64,000 nt of DNA from Rickettsiales bacterium. Lineage in GTDB: Bacteria > Pseudomonadota > Alphaproteobacteria > Rickettsiales > SXRF01. The translations under genes were made by a program, and so were the position numbers. The notes below the pieces were generated by a model. That model was given only the letters and a program-made list of their open reading frames with translations. It ran no database searches and was not told where the DNA came from. The DNA is taken from positions 180 through 64,179 of the forward strand of contig SXRF01000068.1 of assembly GCA_005792635.1 (NCBI GenBank), given 5' to 3'. Below, piece by piece: positions 8,391 to 50,334 of the stretch (position 1 is its first letter; each line of letters begins with the position of its first letter).

Positions 8391-8957
8391 ATGGCTCGTC
8401 CAGAACGCAATGAAAAGAAAACCACTCAAGAAGGCAGCGATTTGATTGACAAGTTGGTGTCCATTAACCGTGTTGCCAAAGTGGTAAAGGGTGGTCGCCG
8501 TTTTGGTTTTGCTGCACTGGTTGTGGTGGGCGATGGCAAAGGTCGTGTTGGTTATGGTGCTGGTAAAGCGAAAGAGGTTTCTGACGCAATGCGTAAGGCT
8601 CTAGATTCGGCAAAAAAATCAATGATTCGCTTCCCGCTTCGTGAAGGTCGGACTGTGCATCATGATTTATATGGTCACTTTGGCGCGGGTAAAGTTATCA
8701 TCCGCACTGCGCCTGTTGGTACTGGTATCATCGCTGGTGGGCCGATGCGTGCAGTATTTGAAGCTCTTGGTGTGCAAGATGTGGTGGCTAAATCGGTTGG
8801 GACTTCTAACCCACACAACATGCTTAAAGCAACTTTTGATGCACTTGAAGGCATGAAATCTCCACGAGCTATTGCTGCGAAACGCGGTAAAGTTGTTGGT
8901 GAGATTGTGGATCGTCGTGAGGGAAAAACTTCATCAGCAAAAACTGCTGAAGCTTAA
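8391..8957 (+). CDS. rpsE: 30S ribosomal protein S5
   Basis: ATG at 8391 after GAGGAATAAAAAG. Contains [16 protein letters not shown]. The ORF-track start at 8376 is a TTG extension. Confidence 0.94.
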
Positions 8958-11212: not shown

Positions 11213-11871
11213 AACTAATCCTACTAGGGCCTCCGGGGGCAGGGAAGGGTACGCAGGCGGATTATTTGCGCTCTTCGCTTGGAATTGCAAAATTATCTAC
11301 GGGGGACATGCTGCGGGCAGCGGTTGCTTCTGGCAGTGAGCTTGGCAAAAAAGCTAAAGATATTATGGCAAGTGGCGGGCTAGTTCCTGATGATTTAGTT
11401 ATTAGCCTGATTCATGATCGCACAGCGCAGGATGATTGCAAAAATGGCTTCATTCTTGATGGCTTTCCGCGTACGGTTGGACAGGCGGAGGCGTTGGACA
11501 AAATGCTTGCGGCGGAGAACAAAAAATTAGATTTTGTAATTGAGCTTCAGGTTGATGATAAGTTACTCACCGAGCGCATTGCTGGTCGTTTTTCCTGTGC
11601 AAAATGTGGTGCTGGCTATCATGACAGCTTTAAGCCAACTAAAGTTTCTGGAGCTTGCGACGAGTGCGGTGCGACTGAATTTTCTCGCCGTGCAGATGAT
11701 AAAGCGGAAACAGTGGCGGCTAGGCTTGAAGCCTATCATAAGCAAACCGCTCCGCTATTGCCATATTATTCAGCCAAAGGCATTTTAACCCCTGTTGACG
11801 GAATGGCGGAAATTGCTGATGTAACTAAACAAATTGATAAAATTGTAAAACAGAAAGAAAAAATTGCATAA
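11209..11871 (+). CDS. adk: Adenylate kinase (zinc-lid type)
   Basis: 220-aa ORF with P-loop [10 protein letters not shown] and lid cysteines CAKCG...CDECG. Its start overlaps the secY stop. Confidence 0.96.
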
Positions 11872-11971: not shown

Positions 11972-12349
11972 GTGGCTCGTATTGCTGGTGTAAATATTCC
12001 TTCTGCTAAGCGTCTTGATATTTCGCTTACTTATATTCATGGTATTGGTCGCGTGAAGGCGACGGAAATCTGCGAAAAAGCAGGTTTGCCGCCTGAAAAG
12101 CGTGTTCATCAACTGGCGGAGTCGGAAGTGATTCGCGTTCGTGAGATTATTGACCGTGATTATACGGTGGAAGGTGATTTGCGCCGTGAAGTTTCCATGA
12201 ATATCAAGCGTTTGGTTGATTTGGGTTGCTATCGCGGTCTTCGTCATCGTAAGAAATTGCCTACTCGTGGGCAGCGTACGCATACCAATGCGCGTACTCG
12301 CAAGGGTAAGGCTAAGCCAATCGCTGGTAAGAAAATTGCAACTAAGTAA
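11972..12349 (+). CDS. rpsM: 30S ribosomal protein S13
   Basis: 125-aa ORF with a GTG start after AGGGG. Reads [10 protein letters not shown]...[24 protein letters not shown]. Confidence 0.96.
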
Positions 12350-12891: not shown

Positions 12892-13905
12892 ATGTTAGCA
12901 AAAAATTGGCAAGACTTAATTAAACCTGTAAAGCTCGATGTGTCTCAATCTAAGGGCAATCCAAACCAAGCAACGATTGTTGCTGAGCCGCTTGAGCGTG
13001 GCTTTGGGCATACTCTTGGTGTTGCTTTGCGCCGCATACTGCTTTCGTCTTTGCAGGGGGCTGCGGTGACCACTCTTAAAATTGAGGGTGTGTTGCATGA
13101 ATTCTCCTCAATCCCTGGTGTGCGTGAGGATGTGACCGATGTTATTCTGAACATCAAAGAATTGCGTATTAAGGCTGGTAGTTCAGAAAAAAAACGGGTT
13201 ACGCTTAATGCTGTTGGTCCTTGTGAAGTAAAGGCTGGTGCGATTGAGGTTTCTGGCGATGTTGAAATTATCAATAAAGAACATGTCATTTGCACTTTGG
13301 ACAAAGGTTCAAAGCTTAATATGGAAATGACTGTGGAAACTGGTAAGGGCTATGTGCGTGCTGCTCGTGCGGCTGATGCGCCTATTGGTCTTATTCCTGT
13401 TGATGCTTTGTTTAGCCCGATTGTTAAAGTTTCATACAAAGTTGAAAATGCTCGTGTTGGTCAGATAACTGACTATGACAAGCTTTCTATGACTATAGAA
13501 ACTGATGGCTCTATCACTGCGGAAGATGCGATTGCTCTTGCTGCTCGCATTTTGCAGGATCAGTTGCAATTATTTATCAATTTCGAAGAGTCTAAAGTTG
13601 AGCGCAAAGAAGATGCAAAACCAGAGCTTCCGTTTAGCCCGTATTTGCTCAAAAAGGTTTATGATTTGGATGAGCTTTCGGTTCGTGCGACAAATTGCCT
13701 GAAAAACGACAATATTATTTATGTTGGTGATTTGGTTCAGAAAACCGAAGGTGAGATGCTTAAAACCCCGAACTTTGGGCGTAAATCACTTAATGAAATC
13801 AAAGAAAAACTGGCAAAAATTGGTTTGCGCTTCGGTATGGAAATACCAAGCTGGCCACCAGAAAATATTGAAGAACTCGCTCGTAAATACGAGGATCCAT
13901 ACTAG
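12892..13905 (+). CDS. rpoA: DNA-directed RNA polymerase subunit alpha
   Basis: ATG at 12892 after GGGAGAG. Contains [23 protein letters not shown] and the C-terminal-domain sequence [20 protein letters not shown]. Confidence 0.96.
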
Positions 13906-13906
13906 G

Positions 13907-13991
13907 GAGTGGCGAGTGCTAAGTAATAAGTGGTAAGATTTTCTTACTAACTTATCACTCATCACTCACCACTTACCACTAACAACTAAGG
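13907..13991. repeat. Heptad-periodic inverted-repeat element in the rpoA-rplQ spacer
   Basis: Left arm GAGTGGC GAGTGCT AAGTAAT AAGTGGT AAG, loop ATTTTC, right arm ACTTATC ACTCATC ACTCACC ACTTACC ACTAACA ACTAAGG. It starts 1 nt after the rpoA stop, and its last unit runs into the rplQ SD AAGGAGA. Confidence 0.85.
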
Positions 13992-21192: not shown

Positions 21193-22212
21193 TTATCTCA
21201 CCTGCGTTACTTGAAATAATTTGCGGCTGCTGGCGGGGATTGATGGCAGGTCTGAGCTTTTGCAAGCGAGTTCCGCCGAAACTATAATTTTCAAAGCTTT
21301 AACGATATTCTCCGCGCTCCAGCTATTCGCGTGGCGGGTGAGGATTGGAGCTTGTTTGAAAAACACAGGCGGGCGGAGTCCCGCAATCACCATTTCCGCG
21401 CTTTGCCCGCTTGCCGTCATTTTTGCGCGGATTTCATAGAGTCGGCTAAAATAGCGTTGCAGCGAGCGAAGGTAAAGGATTGGCTGCACGCCCTCGCGGA
21501 TATTTTGGCTTAAATGTTTTTCCAAATTTGCCAGATTTTTATCCGCAACGGCATTTAGTAAGTCGTTTAACTTAGTGTCTTGGTTGTAGCCAACCAGCGT
21601 TTGCGCGGCGGCAAGGCTGATGATTTTTTCCTCGCCAGCATAGAGTGTTATTTTGTCAAGTTCTTGATAAGTAACATATCTATCGCTACCAAGTTGCGTA
21701 ACTAAATATTCCACCACCTCGCGCTCGGCGCGAATTCCTGCCTCACTGAATTTTTGGCTGATGAGCGATTGTATATCGCGGATTTCATCGCGGTAACAGG
21801 CGATGGCGGCAAAGTCTGGGCTTTTTTCGCAAAATACCCGCAAAGCTGATTTACTCTCCAATTCGCCCGCTGTTAGTATCACAAAACTGTCTTTGTTAAA
21901 AAAGGCGGCGGCAGATTCAATTATTTTGCTGATTTTACTACCTGCATCACGAATGATAATAACGCGCTTGGGCGACATCATGCTGAAAGCCGAGAGTTCA
22001 TCGGCAAGCTTGGTCGGGTCGGCGAGGATTTCCGCCTCGCTGAATTCAATTTTGGCGAAGCTGTCACCAGCCGCCGCACCCAAAAAGGATTTTACAATTT
22101 TTCCCGCCCGTTCGCGCACTACGCCGCCATCTGCACCAAAAATCAGCGCGGCGCGGTGATCGCGGGCGGGTGCGCTCAAAAAACCATCAATTAATTTGGG
22201 GGCGATTTTCAT
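21193..22212 (-). CDS. holA: DNA polymerase III subunit delta
   Basis: 339-aa ORF in the conserved leuS-lptE-holA arrangement, with an N-terminal LIFGADGGVVRE-type clamp-loader delta signature. Confidence 0.85.
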   Translation of the reverse strand: MKIAPKLIDGFLSAPARDHRAALIFGADGGVVRERAGKIVKSFLGAAAGDSFAKIEFSEAEILADPTKLADELSAFSMMSPKRVIIIRDAGSKISKIIESAAAFFNKDSFVILTAGELESKSALRVFCEKSPDFAAIACYRDEIRDIQSLISQKFSEAGIRAEREVVEYLVTQLGSDRYVTYQELDKITLYAGEEKIISLAAAQTLVGYNQDTKLNDLLNAVADKNLANLEKHLSQNIREGVQPILYLRSLQRYFSRLYEIRAKMTASGQSAEMVIAGLRPPVFFKQAPILTRHANSWSAENIVKALKIIVSAELACKSSDLPSIPASSRKLFQVTQVR

Positions 22213-22855
22213 TTGGCGTTATTTGAATAGGCATGATGGTCGGTTGTATGGCAACTGGCTCGGTTGGTTTGGTTTTTTCGGTAATCGCGCTCAAGCGTTG
22301 CAAATATCGCTCGGCAAGCTCAGCTGTACCGCGCTTCCTTGCGTCTTGCTCGGAAATATAGGTGGAAAAATATTGATTGCTCGGGTTGTTATAGCTGGTG
22401 ACGCTGCTGATTGCGCCGTTATCAATCAATTTTCCGTCGCTAATCCGCGTTAATTTATAGCCAGAATTTATGGTAAGGTTATAGCGCGATGCCGTTCCGT
22501 CCCGCGAAATGCCGATGCCTGTATTGGTTTGCGAGAGCGAAACTTCTAGGCGGTATAAAGGTGCAGTGGTTTTGGTGGAAGGAACGAGCAAATCCTCCAG
22601 ATTTTGTGAGAATTGGCGGGATATTCTATTTGCGGAATTATTGCTGGTGTCGGAACTGGAGGCAAGAACGCTGGTGGTTGAGCCACTGTCGCTTGCGACG
22701 ATGACTACCCCAGCCAGAACAGGAGAATTGGCAGGCAGCGCAGATTTTGTGCCATATACAGGCTGAAAGCCGCAGGAGGAAAAGCAGATTAGGAGTGTGG
22801 AGTATAGAGTGTAGAGTGTAAGAATCCTTATAGGAAAAAACGACTTTTTCCACAC
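22187..22855 (-). CDS. lptE: LPS-assembly lipoprotein LptE
   Basis: Located between leuS and holA. Lipobox ...LLICFSSC followed by GFQPVYG. The maximal ORF starts at the ATG at 22897 inside leuS. A GTG at 22855, with GGAG 6 nt upstream, gives a normal signal peptide (M)WKKSFFPIRILTLYTLYSTLLICFSSC. The start remains ambiguous. Confidence 0.75.
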   Translation of the reverse strand: MWKKSFFPIRILTLYTLYSTLLICFSSCGFQPVYGTKSALPANSPVLAGVVIVASDSGSTTSVLASSSDTSNNSANRISRQFSQNLEDLLVPSTKTTAPLYRLEVSLSQTNTGIGISRDGTASRYNLTINSGYKLTRISDGKLIDNGAISSVTSYNNPSNQYFSTYISEQDARKRGTAELAERYLQRLSAITEKTKPTEPVAIQPTIMPIQITPNENRPQIN

Positions 22856-22878
22856 TCCGCACTCCACACTCCACACTC
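22792..22878. repeat. Heptad-periodic inverted-repeat element spanning the lptE 5' end and the leuS 3' flank
   Basis: Left arm GGAGTGT GGAGTAT AGAGTGT AGAGTGT (22792-22819), an inner mini-hairpin GGAAAAA-ACGAC-TTTTTCC (22833-22851), and right arm CACACTC CGCACTC CACACTC CACACTC (22851-22878). Confidence 0.9.
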
Positions 22879-22880
22879 TT

Positions 22881-25445
22881 CTACGCAACCACGACATTCA
22901 CAATCCTATTCGCTACGACGATTATTTTTTTAATTTCTTTATCTTTTATAGACTCCGCAACATTCGGCAGGGCAAGGGCGGTTTTTTCCAAAATCGCTTT
23001 ATCTTCGTCTTTTTTTGCTTCAAACGCACCGCGCAATTTTCCATTTACTTGTACCGCGATATTCACCGAATCATCAATTAAAAACGCAGCATCGGCAATC
23101 GGAAACGGGCGGTTTGCCAGCTCGTCTTTATTACCCAGTTGCGCCCATAATTCTTCGGCGAGATGCGGCATAAACGGATTTATCAGATGAATTGCGGCAA
23201 TTATTGCCTCATTCCTTGCCGCTGAATTTTCCGCTGTAGGTTTGGTATCCTCAATTAGATTAGTCAGCTCACGAATTCGCGCAATGGCTTTGTTGAAATG
23301 GAATTTTTCCAGATCGTCAGTGACTGCGGCGATGGTTTTGTGGGTCTGGCGAATTAGGGCTTCGGGCTTTGGGCTTTGGGCTTCGGAAGAAATACTTGAA
23401 GCCTGAAGCCTAGAGCCTGAAGCCTCTTGAACTAACCGCCACAGCCGACCGATATACCGCCATGCACCTTCAATCCCTGCATCTGTCCATTCCAGATCGC
23501 GGTCGGGCGGGCTGTCGGAAAGCATGAACAACCGCGCCGCATCCACACCATAAGTCGCGATAATATGGCGCGGGTCAATGGTGTTTTTCTTGGACTTACT
23601 CATTTTCTCAATGCGCCCGACAGTAACAGGTTTGCCAGTTTTTATTTCTACAACCCCTAATCCAGAATTGCTAACCCCTATCTCATCAGGCGACAACCAT
23701 TTGCCTTCCGCGTTTTTATAGGTTTCGTGGGAAATCATCCCCTGCGTTTCAAGGCGTTTGAAGGGTTCTTGCAAATTCAGCAAGCCACATTTGGCGAGGG
23801 CGCGGGTGAAAAAGCGCGAATATAACAAATGCAAAACCGCGTGTTCAATGCCGCCGATATAGCAATCAACGCCGCCAGCCAGCCAATAGTTTAGCGCGGA
23901 TTTTTCCAGCGGGTCTGCGCTTGGCGTGGTTGCGTAACGCAAATAATACCATGACGACTCAAAAAATGTGTCAAATGTATCCGTTTCGCGGGTGGCTGGT
24001 TTTTCGCATTTCGGGCAGTTCACATGCTTCCATGTCGGATGATTGGCCAGCGGATTACCCGCTTTTTCAAAGCTCACATCTTTGGGTAACTCAACAGGAA
24101 GCTGCGCCTCTGGTACAGGCACTGCACCGCACGAAGCGCAATGGATAATCGGAATCGGGCAACCCCAGTAGCGTTGGCGCGAAATGCCCCAATCGCGCAG
24201 ACGATAATTGGTTTTGCCTGAGCCAATTCCGAGTTTTTCTAGCTCGGCGATGGCGCGTTTTTTTGCCTCGTCGACTGACAAGCCATTGAGAAAATCCGAG
24301 TTTATAAGTGCGTCATCATCGCCAACCACTTGCAAAATCGGCAGGTTATATTTAACTGCGAATTCGTGGTCGCGCTCGTCATGCGCTGGGCAACCAAAAA
24401 TCGCGCCAGTGCCATAATCCATCAACACGAAATTGGCGATATATAGTGGCACTTCGCGGTTTTCAAACGGATGTTTGATTTTTAATCCAGTATCAAACCC
24501 TTTTTTCTCGGCTTTTTCTATCGCTTCTTCGGATGTTCCAAGCTTATTACATTCAGCGATGAAAGCAGCGGCTTCTGGGTTATGTGCGGCTATATCTTTG
24601 GCAAGGGGATGACCAGTAGAAATCGCGCAGAAACTCATGCCGAAAAATGTATCAGGTCTTGTCGTATATATGTCTATGCTGCTCTCTATTACAGGCTTGT
24701 CAGGTTTGGCGCAAAGAACTTTGAGCGTGACAACAGCTCCCTGCGATTTTCCAATCCATTTTTCCTGCATTAGGCGGACTTTTTCTGGCCATTCTTTTAA
24801 GCCGTCTAGCCCTGCGAGTAAATCCTCGGCGAAATCAGAAATCCGCAAAAACCACTGCGATAATTTGCGGCGTTCCACCAGCGCACCGCTGCGCCAGCCG
24901 CGCCCGTCAATTACTTGCTCATTGGCAAGCACCGTGTTGTCCACAGGATCCCAGTTGACTTCCGCCTCTTTGCGATATGCTAAGCCATTTTCCAGAAATT
25001 TTAGGAAAAATTTTTGCTCGTGCTTGTAATAATCAGGAAGGCAAGTTGCCAGCTCACGCGACCAATCATAAGACAGTCCTATGAGTTTTAGTTGCTCGCG
25101 CATGGTTTCAATATTCGCCAGCGTCCATGTTTCTGGGTGCGAATTATTTTGAATCGCTGCGTTTTCCGCGGGCAAGCCGAACGCGTCCCAACCCATGGGG
25201 TGCAGGACATTAAACCCCTGCGCTCGCTTGCTTCGTGCCACTACATCGCCGAGCGTGTAATTTCGCACATGCCCCATGTGGATATTTCCAGACGGGTAGG
25301 GGAACATTTCCAGCACGAAGTATTTCGGCTTCTCGCTGTTAATGCTGGCGGCGAAGCTGTTGTTTTTTGCCCAGCGCTGTTGCCACTTGGCTTCAGTTTC
25401 GCGGAAGTTGTAGCGGGTGTTTTCTGTGGTTTTTGGTTCGGTCAT
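22881..25445 (-). CDS. leuS: Leucine--tRNA ligase
   Basis: 854-aa ORF with the HMGH motif (PYPSGNIHMGHVRNY), KMSKS and the CP1 editing domain. Confidence 0.97.
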   Translation of the reverse strand: MTEPKTTENTRYNFRETEAKWQQRWAKNNSFAASINSEKPKYFVLEMFPYPSGNIHMGHVRNYTLGDVVARSKRAQGFNVLHPMGWDAFGLPAENAAIQNNSHPETWTLANIETMREQLKLIGLSYDWSRELATCLPDYYKHEQKFFLKFLENGLAYRKEAEVNWDPVDNTVLANEQVIDGRGWRSGALVERRKLSQWFLRISDFAEDLLAGLDGLKEWPEKVRLMQEKWIGKSQGAVVTLKVLCAKPDKPVIESSIDIYTTRPDTFFGMSFCAISTGHPLAKDIAAHNPEAAAFIAECNKLGTSEEAIEKAEKKGFDTGLKIKHPFENREVPLYIANFVLMDYGTGAIFGCPAHDERDHEFAVKYNLPILQVVGDDDALINSDFLNGLSVDEAKKRAIAELEKLGIGSGKTNYRLRDWGISRQRYWGCPIPIIHCASCGAVPVPEAQLPVELPKDVSFEKAGNPLANHPTWKHVNCPKCEKPATRETDTFDTFFESSWYYLRYATTPSADPLEKSALNYWLAGGVDCYIGGIEHAVLHLLYSRFFTRALAKCGLLNLQEPFKRLETQGMISHETYKNAEGKWLSPDEIGVSNSGLGVVEIKTGKPVTVGRIEKMSKSKKNTIDPRHIIATYGVDAARLFMLSDSPPDRDLEWTDAGIEGAWRYIGRLWRLVQEASGSRLQASSISSEAQSPKPEALIRQTHKTIAAVTDDLEKFHFNKAIARIRELTNLIEDTKPTAENSAARNEAIIAAIHLINPFMPHLAEELWAQLGNKDELANRPFPIADAAFLIDDSVNIAVQVNGKLRGAFEAKKDEDKAILEKTALALPNVAESIKDKEIKKIIVVANRIVNVVVA
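23358..23425. repeat. Heptad-periodic inverted repeat inside the leuS coding sequence
   Basis: GGGCTTC GGGCTTT GGGCTTT GGGCTTC, loop, GAAGCCT GAAGCCT AGAGCCT GAAGCCT. On the minus strand it is translated as ...EASGSRLQASSISSEAQSPKPEA.... Confidence 0.9.
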
Positions 25446-27738: not shown

Positions 27739-28416
27739 ATGTTGAATATAAAAGATAAATTGCAAAAAATTGCGGATGATATAGAAAAGGCGAGGGGGGC
27801 TTCGCCCATTGCTGCGCCAGCCGTTACTATACTTGCTGCCAGTAAATCGCAGTCCGCCCTATATATAGAAGAGGCGATTGCGGCGGGCATCACCGATTTT
27901 GGCGAAAACCGCGTGCAAGAAGCGGCGGAAAAGTGGGGGCAGGGCGGCTTGCGGGAAAAATATCCGCATATAAAACTACATCTAATAGGGGCATTGCAAA
28001 CTAATAAAGTGAAGCAGGCACTAGCACTTTTTGATGTTATTCAGAGTGTGGATAGCCCAAAGTTAGCAGAGGCTTTGAGTAAGCACTACACTTCACACTC
28101 CACACTCCGCACTCGTTCTTTCTATATCCAAATCAACACTGGCGAAGAGCCGCAGAAATCAGGGATTTTTCCCGCGCAGGCGGATGAATTCATAAAATAT
28201 TGTGTGGACGAGTTGCAATTGCCAGTTGTTGGGCTGATGTGTGTCCCGCCCGCTGATCAGCCGCCCGCGCCGCATTTTGCTTTGCTGCGTGAAATCGCCA
28301 AGCGGAATAATCTGCGCGAGCTTAGCATGGGCATGAGCGGCGATTACGAAGTGGCGGTGCGGATGGGCGCGAGCTGCGTTCGTGTTGGGACGGCGTTGTT
28401 TGGTGAGCGCGCATAG
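27739..28416 (+). CDS. yggS: PLP-homeostasis protein YggS (COG0325)
   Basis: MLNIKDKLQKIADDIEKA... LAASKSQS ... GENRVQE ... HLIGALQTNKVK ... ELSMGMSGDYEVAVRMGASCVRVGTALFG. The ORF-track start at 27640 is an upstream extension. Confidence 0.88.
   Translation: MLNIKDKLQKIADDIEKARGASPIAAPAVTILAASKSQSALYIEEAIAAGITDFGENRVQEAAEKWGQGGLREKYPHIKLHLIGALQTNKVKQALALFDVIQSVDSPKLAEALSKHYTSHSTLRTRSFYIQINTGEEPQKSGIFPAQADEFIKYCVDELQLPVVGLMCVPPADQPPAPHFALLREIAKRNNLRELSMGMSGDYEVAVRMGASCVRVGTALFGERA
28084..28114. repeat. CACACTC-type heptad array inside the yggS coding sequence
   Basis: ...CACACTC CACACTC CGCACTC, sharing the 14-nt string CACACTCCGCACTC with 22851-22864. It is translated as KHYTSHSTLRTR. Confidence 0.8.
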
Positions 28417-36476: not shown

Positions 36477-36592
36477 TAGTGATGTTTGAGGACTAGAGGA
36501 TTAGAGAAATAGAGAATTCAATTCTTTTGTTTTTCTAGTCCTCTAATCCTCTAGTTTTCTAGTTCTCCAATCATCTAATAATCCAATTATCC
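36474..36592. repeat. Heptad-periodic inverted-repeat element in the mcp-cheR spacer
   Basis: TAGTAGT GATGTTT GAGGACT AGAGGAT TAGAGAA ATAGAGA ... TAGTCCT CTAATCC TCTAGTT TTCTAGT. The segment 36492-36506 (ACTAGAGGATTAGAG) is perfectly complementary to 36541-36555. Confidence 0.9.
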
Positions 36593-47351: not shown

Positions 47352-49547
47352 TTACGCCATAAACTCTGGCAGCCAGCTTTCATTAGTAGCTTTTAGTTGT
47401 TCAACTGATATTTTGTCGTCGCCAATAGTCAGTTGACTGACTTGCGTTTTCCCGATTAGGTAGGCTGGCACATTTATCGCTTTTGCCGCCGCTAGAATAT
47501 CCGCGCTGTTTCTTGCAGTGATTATATAGCGAGCTTGATCTTCACCGAACCAGAACCCAGCATCACCAATCGCTGTAATATCCGCGCCAATCCCATTTCT
47601 ATAAGTCATTTCGGCGATGGCAACTAGCAGCCCACCGTCGGAAATATCATGACAAGCGGTGATTTTTCCGCCCTCAATCATTGAGCGCACAAAATCGCCA
47701 TTGGCTTTTTCCGCCTGCAAATCAACTGTTGGTGGTAAGCCTTCTTCGCGTCCCAAAATCTCGCGCAGATATAACGAAGCTCCCAGATGTTCTTTGGTTT
47801 CACCAATCAGGATAATATCCTCACCAGCCGCCAGAAAACTATTACCCACGCGCTTGTTCACATCGCGCAAAATGCCAACACCGCCGATGGCTGGGGTGGG
47901 TTGAATGGCTGTGCCGCTGGTTTCGTTATATAGCGACACATTGCCCGAAATAATCGGGTAATTGAGTGCGCGGCAAGCCTCGCCCATACCCTGCAATGCG
48001 CCAACGATTTGCCCCATTATTTCGGGTTTTTCTGGGTTGCCGAAATTCAGGCAGTTGGTGATGGCAAGCGGCGTTGCGCCCACGGCGGTTAAATTCCGCC
48101 AAGTTTCGGCAACTGCTTGCTTTCCGCCCTCCACAGGGTCGGCGTAGCAATAGCGCGGTGTGCAGTCGGTGGTTATTGCCAATGCCTTATTCGTGCCATG
48201 CACGCGCACCACCGCAGCATCCCCACCACTTCGTGCCACAGTGTCATTGCCAACTTGGCTGTCATATTGTTCGTATATCCAGCGTTTGGAGCTTAAATCT
48301 GGAGACTTGAGCAGAGTGTGGAGTGTAGAGTGTAGAGTGTGGTGAGCAGGTAATTCAACACTCGTAACGAAGCACTCTACACTCCTCTTAATTTCATACG
48401 GTCGGTCGTAAATCGGAGCATCCGTTGAAACTGGCGCGATTGGCATATCAGCGACTACTTCGCCGTGCATTTTCAGCACGATATGCCCAGTATCGGTGAT
48501 TTTACCGATGGTGGCGAATGACAACTCCCATTTCTCAAACACAGCGCGGGCGATATGTTCTTTTTCTGGCTTAATCACCATCAGCATGCGCTCCTGCGAT
48601 TCTGAAAGCATGATTTCGTAAGGTGTCATGCCCACTTCGCGCATCGGCACTTTGTCCAAATCCATCTCAATTCCCGTGCCGCCTTTACCCGCCATTTCAA
48701 GGGATGAGGAGGTTAAGCCCGCCGCGCCCATGTCCTGAATGGCAAGGATGGTGTCAGTTTGCATGAGTTCAAGGCAAGCTTCAATGAGTAATTTTTCCGT
48801 AAAAGGATCTCCAACCTGCACAGTCGGGCGTTTTTCTTCGGAGTTTTCGCCGAATTCCGCTGAAGCCATCGTCGCGCCGTGGATGCCGTCGCGCCCTGTT
48901 TTGCTGCCGACATACACCACGCTGTTGCCAACGCCCGCCGCCGCCGAATAGAAGATTTTGTCTTGGTCAGCGATGCCAACGGTCATAGCATTGACGAGGA
49001 TATTGCCGTTATATGACGAGTGAAAATTGCACTCGCCGCCAACAGTGGGAACACCAACGCAGTTGCCATAGCCGCCGATGCCCGCCACCACGCCAGAAAG
49101 CAAATGTTTGGTTTTGGGGTGCGAAGGGTCGCCAAAGCGCAGCGCGTTCATATTCGCAATCGGACGCGCGCCCATGGTGAACACATCGTGCAGAATTCCG
49201 CCAACACCTGTGGCAGCACCCTGATATGGCTCAATGTAAGATGGGTGGTTGTGCGATTCCATTTTGAAAATCGCCGCTTGCCCGTCGCCAATGTCTATCA
49301 CGCCCGCGTTTTCCCCCGGCCCGCAGATGACCCAAGGTGCGCTGGTTGGCAAGTCGCGTAAGTGTTTGCGCGTGGTTTTATAAGAGCAATGCTCGCTCCA
49401 CATAACCGAGAAAATCCCCAGCTCCACCATGTTCGGCTCACGCCCCATGATTTTCAGCACGCGGGCATATTCATCAGGCGATAAGCCATGTTCAGCCACG
49501 ATTTGCGGGGTTATTTTTGATTCTATTCTTTGTGCAGCTTGGTTCAT
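47352..49547 (-). CDS. purL: Phosphoribosylformylglycinamidine synthase subunit PurL
   Basis: [21 protein letters not shown] and DCLNFGNPE-like motifs. The ATG at 49547 ([22 protein letters not shown]) is preferred over the TTG at 49598 used by the ORF track. Confidence 0.95.
48314..48386. repeat. GAGTGT-type heptad inverted repeat inside the purL coding sequence
   Basis: GAGTGTG GAGTGTA GAGTGTA GAGTGTG (48314-48341), a loop, then CACTCTA CACTCCT (48373-48386). On the minus strand it is translated as ...[17 protein letters not shown].... Confidence 0.88.
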
Positions 49548-49575
49548 AAAATTGATTACTTTTTGATGGTGTTTT

Positions 49576-50334
49576 CTAGCTTCTTTTAATAGGTTCAATC
49601 TGTTTTTGTATGTTTTTTATGTATTCATCAATTTTAAACTCCATTTTTGTACACATTTTTATCAATTCCTGCATTTTTAGGTCAATATAACTACCTTCAT
49701 ACTGTTCTGGGAGGAGATAGTCATTAACTTTATCTACGCTATAGGTAGGCAACAATTTATTAAACTCTTGTTCATATTCTTCAAAAGAAAAAGATTTATT
49801 GTTTTGTACCCACTCATTCATATCGTTGAATATGTTTATATTAGCATTTTCAGCGTATTCTTCATATTTATTATCCAATCCTTGTTCTATTAATCTATTT
49901 TTTTCATCTCTTATAACATTCCAATTTTTCTGTATACCATCAGATAATTTTTGAAAACCGTCTTTAAATTGAGCGATACCTGATATTATTCCATTACGCA
50001 AATCAGACAAATTTTCACCAGTAACTCTATCTGTATAAAGGTAAGAACTTAAAAGATTTCTGAGCCCTGACAGCATATTTATGTAAAAACTCTCATCTGA
50101 AGATGTATTACTATTATCCTTTAATCCTTTGATTATATAACCATACTCACCAACAGAACAGTATAAAGGCGAGTTTTGTAATGAAGGATTTTTAGTTCCG
50201 ATCTTGTGATACAAAATATCGTTTATTATTCCCTTTTTATCTTCCGTAGCTATTGAAAGAATAATAGCATCTATGTCTTTACATATGCTGTCAGGAGTGA
50301 TTTCTGCTTGTGACTTCTGTGCGGCGGTATTCAT
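49576..50334 (-). CDS. Hypothetical protein, strongly AT-rich orphan directly upstream of purL
   Basis: 252-aa ORF, Asn/Ile/Lys/Glu-rich. Sampled 60-nt lines give about 32-37% G+C, against about 53% for a purL line. No family recognised. Confidence 0.6.

Follow-up and report, generated by a model that had tools for sequence, protein, structure and literature searches.

Heptad palindromes resembling STRR sequences lie in frame at orthologous sites of essential genes in a clade of uncultured alphaproteobacteria

Cyanobacteria have been known since 1990 to carry tandem heptamer repeats, the units described for the STRR (short tandemly repeated repetitive) sequences of heterocystous cyanobacteria being CCCCAGT, TTGGTCA, and CAACAGT, and Xanthomonas has been known to do so since 2015; we know of no explanation of their origin so far. 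STRR sequences were reportedly also described in cyanobacterial rnpB by Vioque in 1997, a title cited in PMC2858038. The Rickettsia palindromic elements (RPEs) fall into families, each with its conserved consensus and a length near 100-150 bp, and have the appearance of net insertions. The present study concerns 64,000 nucleotides of contig SXRF01000068.1 from a Rickettsiales bacterium (GenBank assembly GCA_005792635.1, positions 180 to 64,179; this whole stretch is called the window and numbered from its own first letter), in which an array of the heptad GAGTGTR and its inverted partner lie inside purL and are translated in frame. Repeats of this kind recur in the window and in related genomes, and they are STRR-like heptad palindromes that occupy, in frame, orthologous sites of essential genes across an alphaproteobacterial clade, and not MITEs (miniature inverted-repeat transposable elements), repetitive extragenic palindromic (REP) sequences, or RPEs.

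The closest described systems are the long simple sequence repeats (long SSRs) of Nostoc PCC 7120, with the unit GGGGA(T/C)T, and of Xanthomonas, with the unit GGGAATC, which prefer four units, frequently form convergent pairs, keep their gene context with a sequence that varies between relatives, and lie inside open reading frames (ORFs) in 7-32% of the copies (PMC4692102). RPEs have been found in frame within protein-coding genes (PMC1950309), and REP sequences and REPINs share a conserved sequence with a GTAG/CGTC head (PMC3733652). The TAACTGA repeats of Beggiatoaceae and cyanobacteria, which are lineage-restricted and of unknown origin, consist of two to six heptamer units, contain stop codons in forward orientation and, with one inverted case, are almost all direct and located just upstream of start codons (PMC4679880). 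With respect to process rather than family, template switching at quasipalindromes homogenizes the arms of inverted repeats (PMC7202029, PMC8604942).

The gene and the parts of the element are as follows, with residues numbered on the 748-residue ORF as listed and relatives designated by L numbers.

47352 to 49598, minus strand: purL, subunit PurL of formylglycinamidine ribonucleotide (FGAM) synthase, small type (NCBIfam NF002290, 1037.6 bits at a cut-off of 648)

48314 to 48341, minus strand: 3' arm in coding sense, the four heptads CACACTC TACACTC TACACTC CACACTC, encoding H420-T428 (HTLHSTLHT) and the first base of L429

48342 to 48356, minus strand: hairpin loop, GAATTACCTGCTCAC in coding sense (E-L-P-A-H), with homologs in L081, L082, and L168, where the loops read E-I-P-(A/E/K)-N

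48355 to 48386, minus strand: 5' arm in coding sense, partly decayed, GGAGTGT AGAGTGC ttcgtta CGAGTGT TGA, encoding R405-E415

On the plus strand, the array reads GAGTGTG GAGTGTA GAGTGTA GAGTGTG (48314-48341) and its partner CACTCTA CACTCC (CACTCTACACTCC, 48373-48385), and the whole element is about 70 nt long. At 48313-48340, Tandem Repeats Finder (TRF) detects 4.0 tandem copies with a period of 7, and the best inverted repeat of the segment is 13 nt long and 100% complementary (48320-48332 with 48373-48385, 40 nt between). For the segment of 101 nt, the folding energy is -16.3 kcal/mol in the case of DNA (z = -3.15 against shuffles) and -28.5 kcal/mol in that of RNA (z = -2.76). The gene product matches PurL of Thermus thermophilus (3VIU) with an E value of 1.4e-186. 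As listed, the ORF starts with TTG 17 codons upstream of Met18 (extra stretch 49548-49598), and public annotations of the same contig let purL begin at Met18 (731 aa, 47352-49547; identical proteins P0242 and P0243). The original prediction, which had been made from the sequence alone, is borne out in that a GAGTGT array with an inverted partner lies in minus-strand purL (sequence, TRF, and the 13-nt inverted repeat agree), that the gene is purL and the element is translated exactly as claimed (residues 405-440), and that the coding-strand array is free of stop codons in all three frames; the TAG codons that it had placed in several frames of the plus-strand array are likewise present, in two frames.

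Perfect pairing is left in the 5' arm only at 48373-48385, with 48320-48332. The middle of this arm, TGC TTC GTT ACG against TGT GGA GTG TGG in L081 and TCT GGA GTG TGG in L168, carries six substitutions in 12 nt relative to L081, and the imperfect hairpin of the window is a decayed member of its group.

The history of the site became apparent from the purL DNA of eleven relatives, whose PurL proteins are 73-88% identical. A heptad-array hairpin occupies the same place, between YDRP and L..LL.SPDL, in ten of the eleven, and at least seven different units are found there. The 5'-arm units are as follows.

GAGTGTR: L081, L082, and L168

GCTGAGT: L169

AGCGGTC: L001

GAGGTCA: L083

CGGGATT: L084

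GTTGCCA: L085

GGCATTA / GGGATTG: L086

GGGATTA / GGGGATT: L087

The z scores of these hairpins, folded as DNA, range from -2.0 to -7.0, the lowest value belonging to the near-perfect 4+4 units of L081, compared to -0.4 for the hairpin-free linker of L170. In an alignment of 120 PurL proteins of relatives, peptide signatures of the hairpin appear in most close relatives and are scattered among more distant ones, and the ordinary hairpin-free linker reads VPTPKR...DVPA.KDL..AL..L. Between the window, L081, L082, and L168, identities are 70-78% in the GAGTGT cassettes and 75-83% in the flanking 900 nt, as vertical descent from an old occupant of the site would predict. Judged from these comparisons, the purL site appears to have been occupied since before the divergence of these species and its unit to have been replaced repeatedly. 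A recent arrival in this genome is incompatible with the homologous cassettes that relatives with flanks of only 75-83% identity carry at this site. Since the units of L081 are almost perfect despite this age, something must keep re-homogenizing them. A neighbor-joining tree of the 120 proteins was star-like at depth and for this reason cannot decide between many independent gains and one old gain with replacements, so that block-versus-flank identities were used.

L082 and L085, in contrast, have flanks that are 93% identical and enclose a block of about 115 nt with an identity of only 47%. The block extends from TATGAGAT to AARCGCTGG and, 3' of the hairpin, takes in 30 nt of coding DNA that do not belong to the repeat (KSPDLSS against SCPDLAS). 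In at least one lineage, then, the whole cassette has recently been swapped along with neighboring coding sequence, for which homologous exchange with a different allele is the simplest explanation.

Further stems were seen next to two of the hairpins. Directly 3' of the L081 hairpin (~11231-11260), conserved purL codons form the perfect stem GCTCAAATC-CCCC-GATTTGAGC, encoding LKSPDLS, and directly 3' of the L087 hairpin (~8715-8740), the perfect stem GACTTGCTAAC-GTT-GTTAGCAAGTC encodes DLLTLLAS. Both could be due to chance or to further arm-to-arm templating.

The occurrence of several copies with the identical unit in one 64-kb window, and of family members both between genes and, in frame, within three or four housekeeping genes, would fit a miniature mobile palindromic element of the RPE or MITE type that is mobilized in trans by a transposase, inserted in frame, and kept as harmless, the more so as in-frame palindromic repeats are known from Rickettsia (PMC1950309). 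The filled and empty alleles, however, do not differ by a net insertion. In L169, compared to the empty L170 (flanks 81% identical), a hairpin of 66 nt stands in place of 57 nt of ordinary linker. The linker of the window PurL has the same length as that of Thermus 3VIU, to which it aligns without gaps through the region, and as the linkers of 80 PurLs from other alphaproteobacteria, so that the repeat adds no length. The original prediction was right in regarding the region as a variable linker, which lies between domains and has a similar length in other PurLs; the repeat is not an insertion into a loop. No target-site duplication was seen at the L169/L170 borders or at the second purL site described below. 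P0042 and P0067 served for the DNA comparison of filled and empty alleles (the closest filled/empty pair, P0044/P0070, is 88.7% identical). There is also no conserved core, loops and units vary from locus to locus, and some arrays are the reverse complement of adjacent native coding sequence. No transposase turned up, with the limits that a genome-wide search was not made, that the other genes of the window were not screened, and that 64 kb cannot exclude one. Altogether, mobilization of this kind is an unlikely origin of the repeats.

The comparison with the described mobile and palindromic families leads in the same direction. With RPEs, the repeats share the alphaproteobacterial host group, the palindromic structure, and the occurrence both between genes and in frame in conserved genes (here purL, leuS, and yggS), where they are read through and apparently tolerated. 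In contrast to the net insertion of a consensus sequence, they are ~70 nt long, consist of variable heptad units without a consensus beyond the heptad, and replace native sequence at about equal length. MITEs differ by their target-site duplication and conserved internal sequence, whereas the loops are here unrelated between loci. REP sequences, bacterial interspersed mosaic elements (BIMEs), and REPINs are likewise short multicopy hairpin repeats and often lie between genes of one operon, but these are extragenic and lack a heptad periodicity. The repeats studied here have copies inside ORFs and no visible consensus headed by GTAG/CGTC; no search for REP-associated tyrosine transposases (RAYTs) was made.

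Replacement is also seen at a second site in purL (codons ~655-665, DITAIGDAG, followed by FWFGEDQ), where 27 nt are replaced by a 33-nt array of the AATCCCC type in L086 (11963-11994, TCCCTAATCCCCAATCCCGAATCCCCAATCCC) and, nearly identically, in L081 (11963-11995). The array is the reverse complement of the native sequence GGGATTGG (N-G-I-G codons), which lies 4 nt upstream and, as the seed, starts 12 nt before the array. The window represents the empty allele of this site (~47565-47591), with the native seed present and no array. In yggS of the window, a single array of the type (CACACTC)~4 is found 35 nt downstream of the native seed GAGTGTGGA (Q-S-V-D codons). An equally long seed match occurred in 5/3182, 10/632, and 8/1093 of the control windows, the first value referring to yggS. 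In these alleles, native sequence is replaced instead of interrupted, and the single-arm arrays have native seeds.

Outside purL, the following members of the family are present in the window.

2796 to 2942, no strand assigned: intergenic hairpin between rplB and rpsS, five units TAGTGGC/TAGTGAT, an 81-nt spacer, and 4.6 units CACTGAC

13905 to 13989, no strand assigned: intergenic hairpin between the rpoA stop codon and rplQ, GAGTGGC GAGTGCT AAGTAAT AAGTGGT ... CTTATCA CTCATCA CTCACCA CTTACCA

22789 to 22878, no strand assigned: hairpin with the same unit as purL just downstream of the leuS stop codon, GAGTGTG GAGTATA GAGTGTA GAGTGTA, a 28-nt loop, and CCACACT CCGCACT CCACACT CCACACTC

23351 to 23425, minus strand: in-frame leuS hairpin, four units GGGCTTC and four units TGAAGCC on the plus strand, encoding EASGSRLQASSISSEAQSPKPEA in the variable linker before HKTIAAVTDD

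28044 to 28114, plus strand: yggS member, the native seed GAGTGTGGA (28044-28052) followed by the single array ACACTTC ACACTCC ACACTCC GCACTC (28088-28114), in frame as HYTSHSTLRTR

36485 to 36579: intergenic hairpin with 8-nt units and the G-rich arm first, GAGGACTA GAGGATTA GAGAAATA GAGAATTC ... TTTTCTAG TCCTCTAA TCCTCTAG ...

Three or four of the seven copies of the window lie in ORFs. The leuS gene comprises 22881-25445, and in LeuS of relatives the same linker carries signatures of other units, e.g., QLSVVSSQLSEEKNTDNRQLTTDN and KDSGFRIQDS...PECRILHPES. The periodicity is not strictly 7, since the arms at 36485-36579 consist of octads. The purL unit is shared with the copy at the leuS/lptE-like junction (22793-22878) and with that in yggS (28088-28114), as the original prediction had stated. 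The common origin that it had drawn from this identity is possible and not established: as a native heptamer close by serves as the template of single-arm arrays, identical units may stem from a shared process instead of one ancestor.

Some observations on these loci stand on their own. The hairpin at 22789-22878 overlaps the 5' end of the minus-strand ORF 22187-22897, which has a lipoprotein-like N terminus; read from the hairpin's C-rich arm, ILTLYTLYSTLL would form the hydrophobic core of a signal peptide that resembles those of lipoproteins (…KKSFFPIRILTLYTLYSTLLICFSSC), and an internal GTG start would give a signal peptide of normal length. The name lptE for this ORF is unverified, as it has no NCBIfam match. 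The hairpins at 2796-2942 and 13905-13989 are located inside ribosomal-protein/rpoA operons and start at or a few bases from the upstream stop codon. They do not look like intrinsic terminators, because no T-run follows either of them (judged by eye).

The enrichment is specific for the heptad. With one mismatch at most, GAGTGTRGAGTGT occurs 13 times in the window, compared to 0.05 occurrences expected, and there are seven period-7 arrays, whereas the other periods between 4 and 12 have 0-1 each and shuffled sequences have none. Per 100 kb, the density of period-7 arrays is 8.6 in the window and eight relatives (64 kb and 145 kb) and 0.15 in other alphaproteobacteria (1.3 Mb), an approximately 57-fold difference that is inflated because every relative's locus was chosen via purL. 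These outgroup contigs came from a scan of metagenome contigs with PurL and have identities of ≤73% among the matches listed. No period other than 7 is enriched in the clade sample, and the family of period-7 palindromes is restricted to this clade. A scan of viral contigs for (GAGTGTR)4 yielded seven plain direct arrays in unrelated contigs, which have no partners and are uninformative on origin. Partnerless arrays of this kind are what an ordinary microsatellite arising by chance slippage, with a fortuitous complementary stretch nearby, would resemble. This explanation has virtually nothing left in its favor and is refuted by the number of occurrences, by the enrichment of period 7 alone, by 13 inverted pairs that all have one polarity, and by the occupation of the orthologous site in many species. 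A seven-unit plain array (CAACTGG/CAACCGG)n without an inverted partner was also seen after a stop codon in the more distant L099 (9879-9930; PurL 67% identical), and its unit belongs to the family of the L085 purL hairpin (GTTGCCA).

The repeats even extend to RNase P RNA. The genes matching RF00010 are 527 nt long in L084 (17439-17965), 460 nt in L169 (16188-16647), and 382 nt in L082. In L084, rnpB contains (CAGAAGT)n near its 5' end and, at a position resembling P12 as assigned by eye, three units GAGTTTA ... four units CTACACT; at the same position L169 has a hairpin of the GGGTTAT type. These rnpB hairpins come from relatives and not from the window. Directly 3' of rnpB, hairpins of the GAGTG/GAGTT type occur in L083 (20109-20181), L084, and L085 (~12075-12140). 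The hairpins thus persist only where they are tolerated, i.e., in intergenic DNA, in those helices of the RNase P RNA that vary, and in variable protein linkers, and in proteins only versions that are in frame, free of stop codons, and of about the original length have been kept.

The common features with the STRR sequences and long SSRs of Nostoc and Xanthomonas are accordingly the 7-nt unit in three or more copies, the preference for about four units, the convergent stem-loop pairs, scattered copies that lie mostly between co-oriented genes and in a minority inside ORFs, and a gene context that stays the same in relatives despite varying length and sequence. The over-representation of period 7 is likewise present, here in 64 kb and 145 kb and not in whole genomes, as are copies inside the RNase P RNA gene, here in relatives. 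The L087 unit GGGGATT is literally the Nostoc unit and the only match to described units; the L085 unit TCAGTTG is one base away from TCAGTTA, the reverse complement of the TAACTGA repeat. The remaining described units and a cyanobacterial or Xanthomonas host were not encountered, the hosts being uncultured alphaproteobacteria and the unit of the window GAGTGTR. Many unit families exist here, and since most of them lack G-tracts, a G-quadruplex cannot explain the four-unit preference in this clade. A further difference is the presence of in-frame copies in conserved housekeeping enzymes, at orthologous sites across species. Unit turnover, templating from native seeds, and a strict G-first polarity are documented here, and no such description was found in the literature consulted.

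The polarity and the size of the arms were scored in 13 paired hairpins of the window and its relatives, eight of them in purL. The G-rich arm is 5' in all 13, with G minus C of the 5' arm ranging from +4 to +15 and the same on either strand, and the arms are 3.1 to 4.9 units long (mean ~4.2). A small repertoire of units is shared across loci and genomes (GAGTGTR, GGGATTR, CAGTTGY, GGTCAGN, and others). Sense and antisense folding of nine hairpins, a small sample, gave similar energies, 269 and 271 total pairs, and 21 and 17 G·U pairs in the stems, so no sense-strand G·U bias was found in these nine, contrary to the excess of G·U over A·C on the transcribed strand that a functional mRNA structure would have. 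This comparison is relevant to the proposal that the heptads are incidental to a selected structure of the purL message at the boundary of the PurL halves, e.g., a translational pause or an element for RNase processing or stability. The position of the hairpin at the inter-domain linker, its maintenance in 10/11 relatives though both arms have completely changed, and the like pattern at the LeuS linker agree with such selection. Apart from the missing G·U advantage, however, decay of the stem is under way in L082, L083, and the window (z scores from -2.0 to -3.2), close relatives such as L170 have no hairpin, the linker peptides of P0055 to P0057 (protein only) have no obvious hairpin signature, and identical structures lie in non-coding spacers and inside rnpB. 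Selection on the message is consequently improbable as the reason for the repeats, to much the same degree as mobilization by a transposase.

The consequences for the protein can be judged from an AlphaFold2 model of PurL, which was built on 76 relatives (mean predicted local distance difference test score [pLDDT], 82.6). The model has a coil at residues 387-421 (pLDDT of 72 for 401-410 and 64 for 411-420) and a helix at residues 422-430 (pLDDT of 93). The 5' arm and the loop are accordingly predicted, with low confidence, to encode a flexible inter-domain linker coil (residues 405-420), and the four CACACTC-type heptads (HTLHSTLHT) to fall mostly within the conserved helix. The mapping to a surface loop that the original prediction had suggested as a check therefore agrees with the 5' arm and the loop and disagrees with the 3' arm; with HTLHSTLHT in helix 422-430, half of the element maps to conserved structure, which that prediction had named as an outcome against itself.

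Read in frame, the 7-nt repeat gives a 7-residue peptide repeat with the leucines L422, L426, and L429 three or four residues apart, as a helix requires; L426 is invariant and L429 at least 90% conserved in the 76 PurLs. The TACACTC variants moreover provide Leu (CTA) at a place where CACACTC would give Pro (CCA). Since the 3' arm supplies all three leucines of the conserved helix, an innovation at the protein level could be imagined, in which PurL is improved by the encoded amphipathic helix H-T-L-H-S-T-L with its regularly placed leucines. The same place is nevertheless taken in other cases by units whose peptides are quite different, and the leucine pattern is already present in hairpin-free PurLs, so selection explains which variants survived and not why the repeat is there. 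A benefit of the peptide as the cause of the repeat is thus very improbable. Presumably, the CACACTC arm happens to keep the leucines of the conserved helix and the other arm is drifting, and the element would then have no dedicated role in PurL, for which it is most likely neutral baggage.

Overall, the missing strand bias, the local seeds, the replacement without net gain, the absence of duplications and of a core, and the variety of locations argue for templated copying at the DNA level and against transposition or selection on the purL message. The explanation towards which we lean, with a confidence that is limited, is a STRR-like palindromic DNA repeat that template switching with slippage writes and renews, that is exchanged in the form of cassettes, and whose in-frame copies are tolerated. 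Its general form is 5'-(U)~4 - short loop - (reverse complement of U)~4-3', with U as the 7-nt unit, and the arrays would be products of the DNA-copying machinery and not of a transposase. A nascent or resected 3' end would snap back onto a nearby G-rich heptamer, which would then be copied repeatedly with slippage, until the 3' end rejoins the template further on and the reverse-complement array overwrites a similar length of the original sequence. A reciprocal event on the other strand would complete the second arm, and slippage together with arm-to-arm template switching would keep the units alike. Selection would finally retain in-frame, stop-free versions of about the original length in tolerant places. 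The snap-back step resembles the template switching at quasipalindromes and the snap-back insertions at repaired breaks (PMC7202029, PMC8604942), by which sequence at an inverted repeat is overwritten with the complement of the other arm at little change in length, the arms become alike, and the coding is possibly altered. There, the template is copied once, whereas here about four 7-nt iterations occur, the 3' array is always C-rich, and the frequency is high enough to shape a genome; the likeness is one of mechanism and not of family.

Several points weigh against this explanation. The snap-back is deduced from anatomy only, and no native seed was found for the two-armed purL hairpin. The recurring small repertoire of units is not predicted by purely local seeding and suggests that units are copied from locus to locus, that a sequence-specific factor takes part, or that some heptamers are better able to seed than others. 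The strict G-first polarity and the four-unit arms are left unexplained by the model, and structural selection, too, would be expected to retain a hairpin at one site in many species while its two arms change in concert. The inflated density counts on the same side, as does the fact that all sequences stem from metagenome assemblies, although the hairpins recur in independent ones.

Irrespective of how they are made, the repeats show that palindromic DNA of a non-coding type can enter conserved enzymes, even at the start of a conserved helix, with the length unchanged. In genome annotation, such segments should not be taken for recent insertions or assembly errors. Phylogenies and recombination scans may also be misled by them, because the evolution of the linker block is uncoupled from that of the remaining gene. 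The phenomenon is unusual and informative on how bacterial heptamer repeats arise. The clade offers natural experiments in essential genes, i.e., filled and empty alleles, seeds beside reverse-complement arrays, a swapped cassette, and a fixed polarity and arm length, by which the origin of heptamer repeats becomes testable. It is conceivable, though we rate it as rather doubtful, that a DNA-synthesis activity of a dedicated or idiosyncratic kind operates in this clade and, by extension, in Nostocales and Xanthomonas, which copies a G-rich heptamer by snap-back about four times and so writes palindromes of fixed polarity and arm length into the chromosome. If this were true, it would be an endogenous templated "sequence writer" that gives rise to new coding sequence and repeatedly rewrites linkers and helix starts of the essential proteins PurL, LeuS, and YggS as well as the RNase P RNA in its variable helices, and it would explain where bacterial heptamer repeats come from, a question open since 1990.

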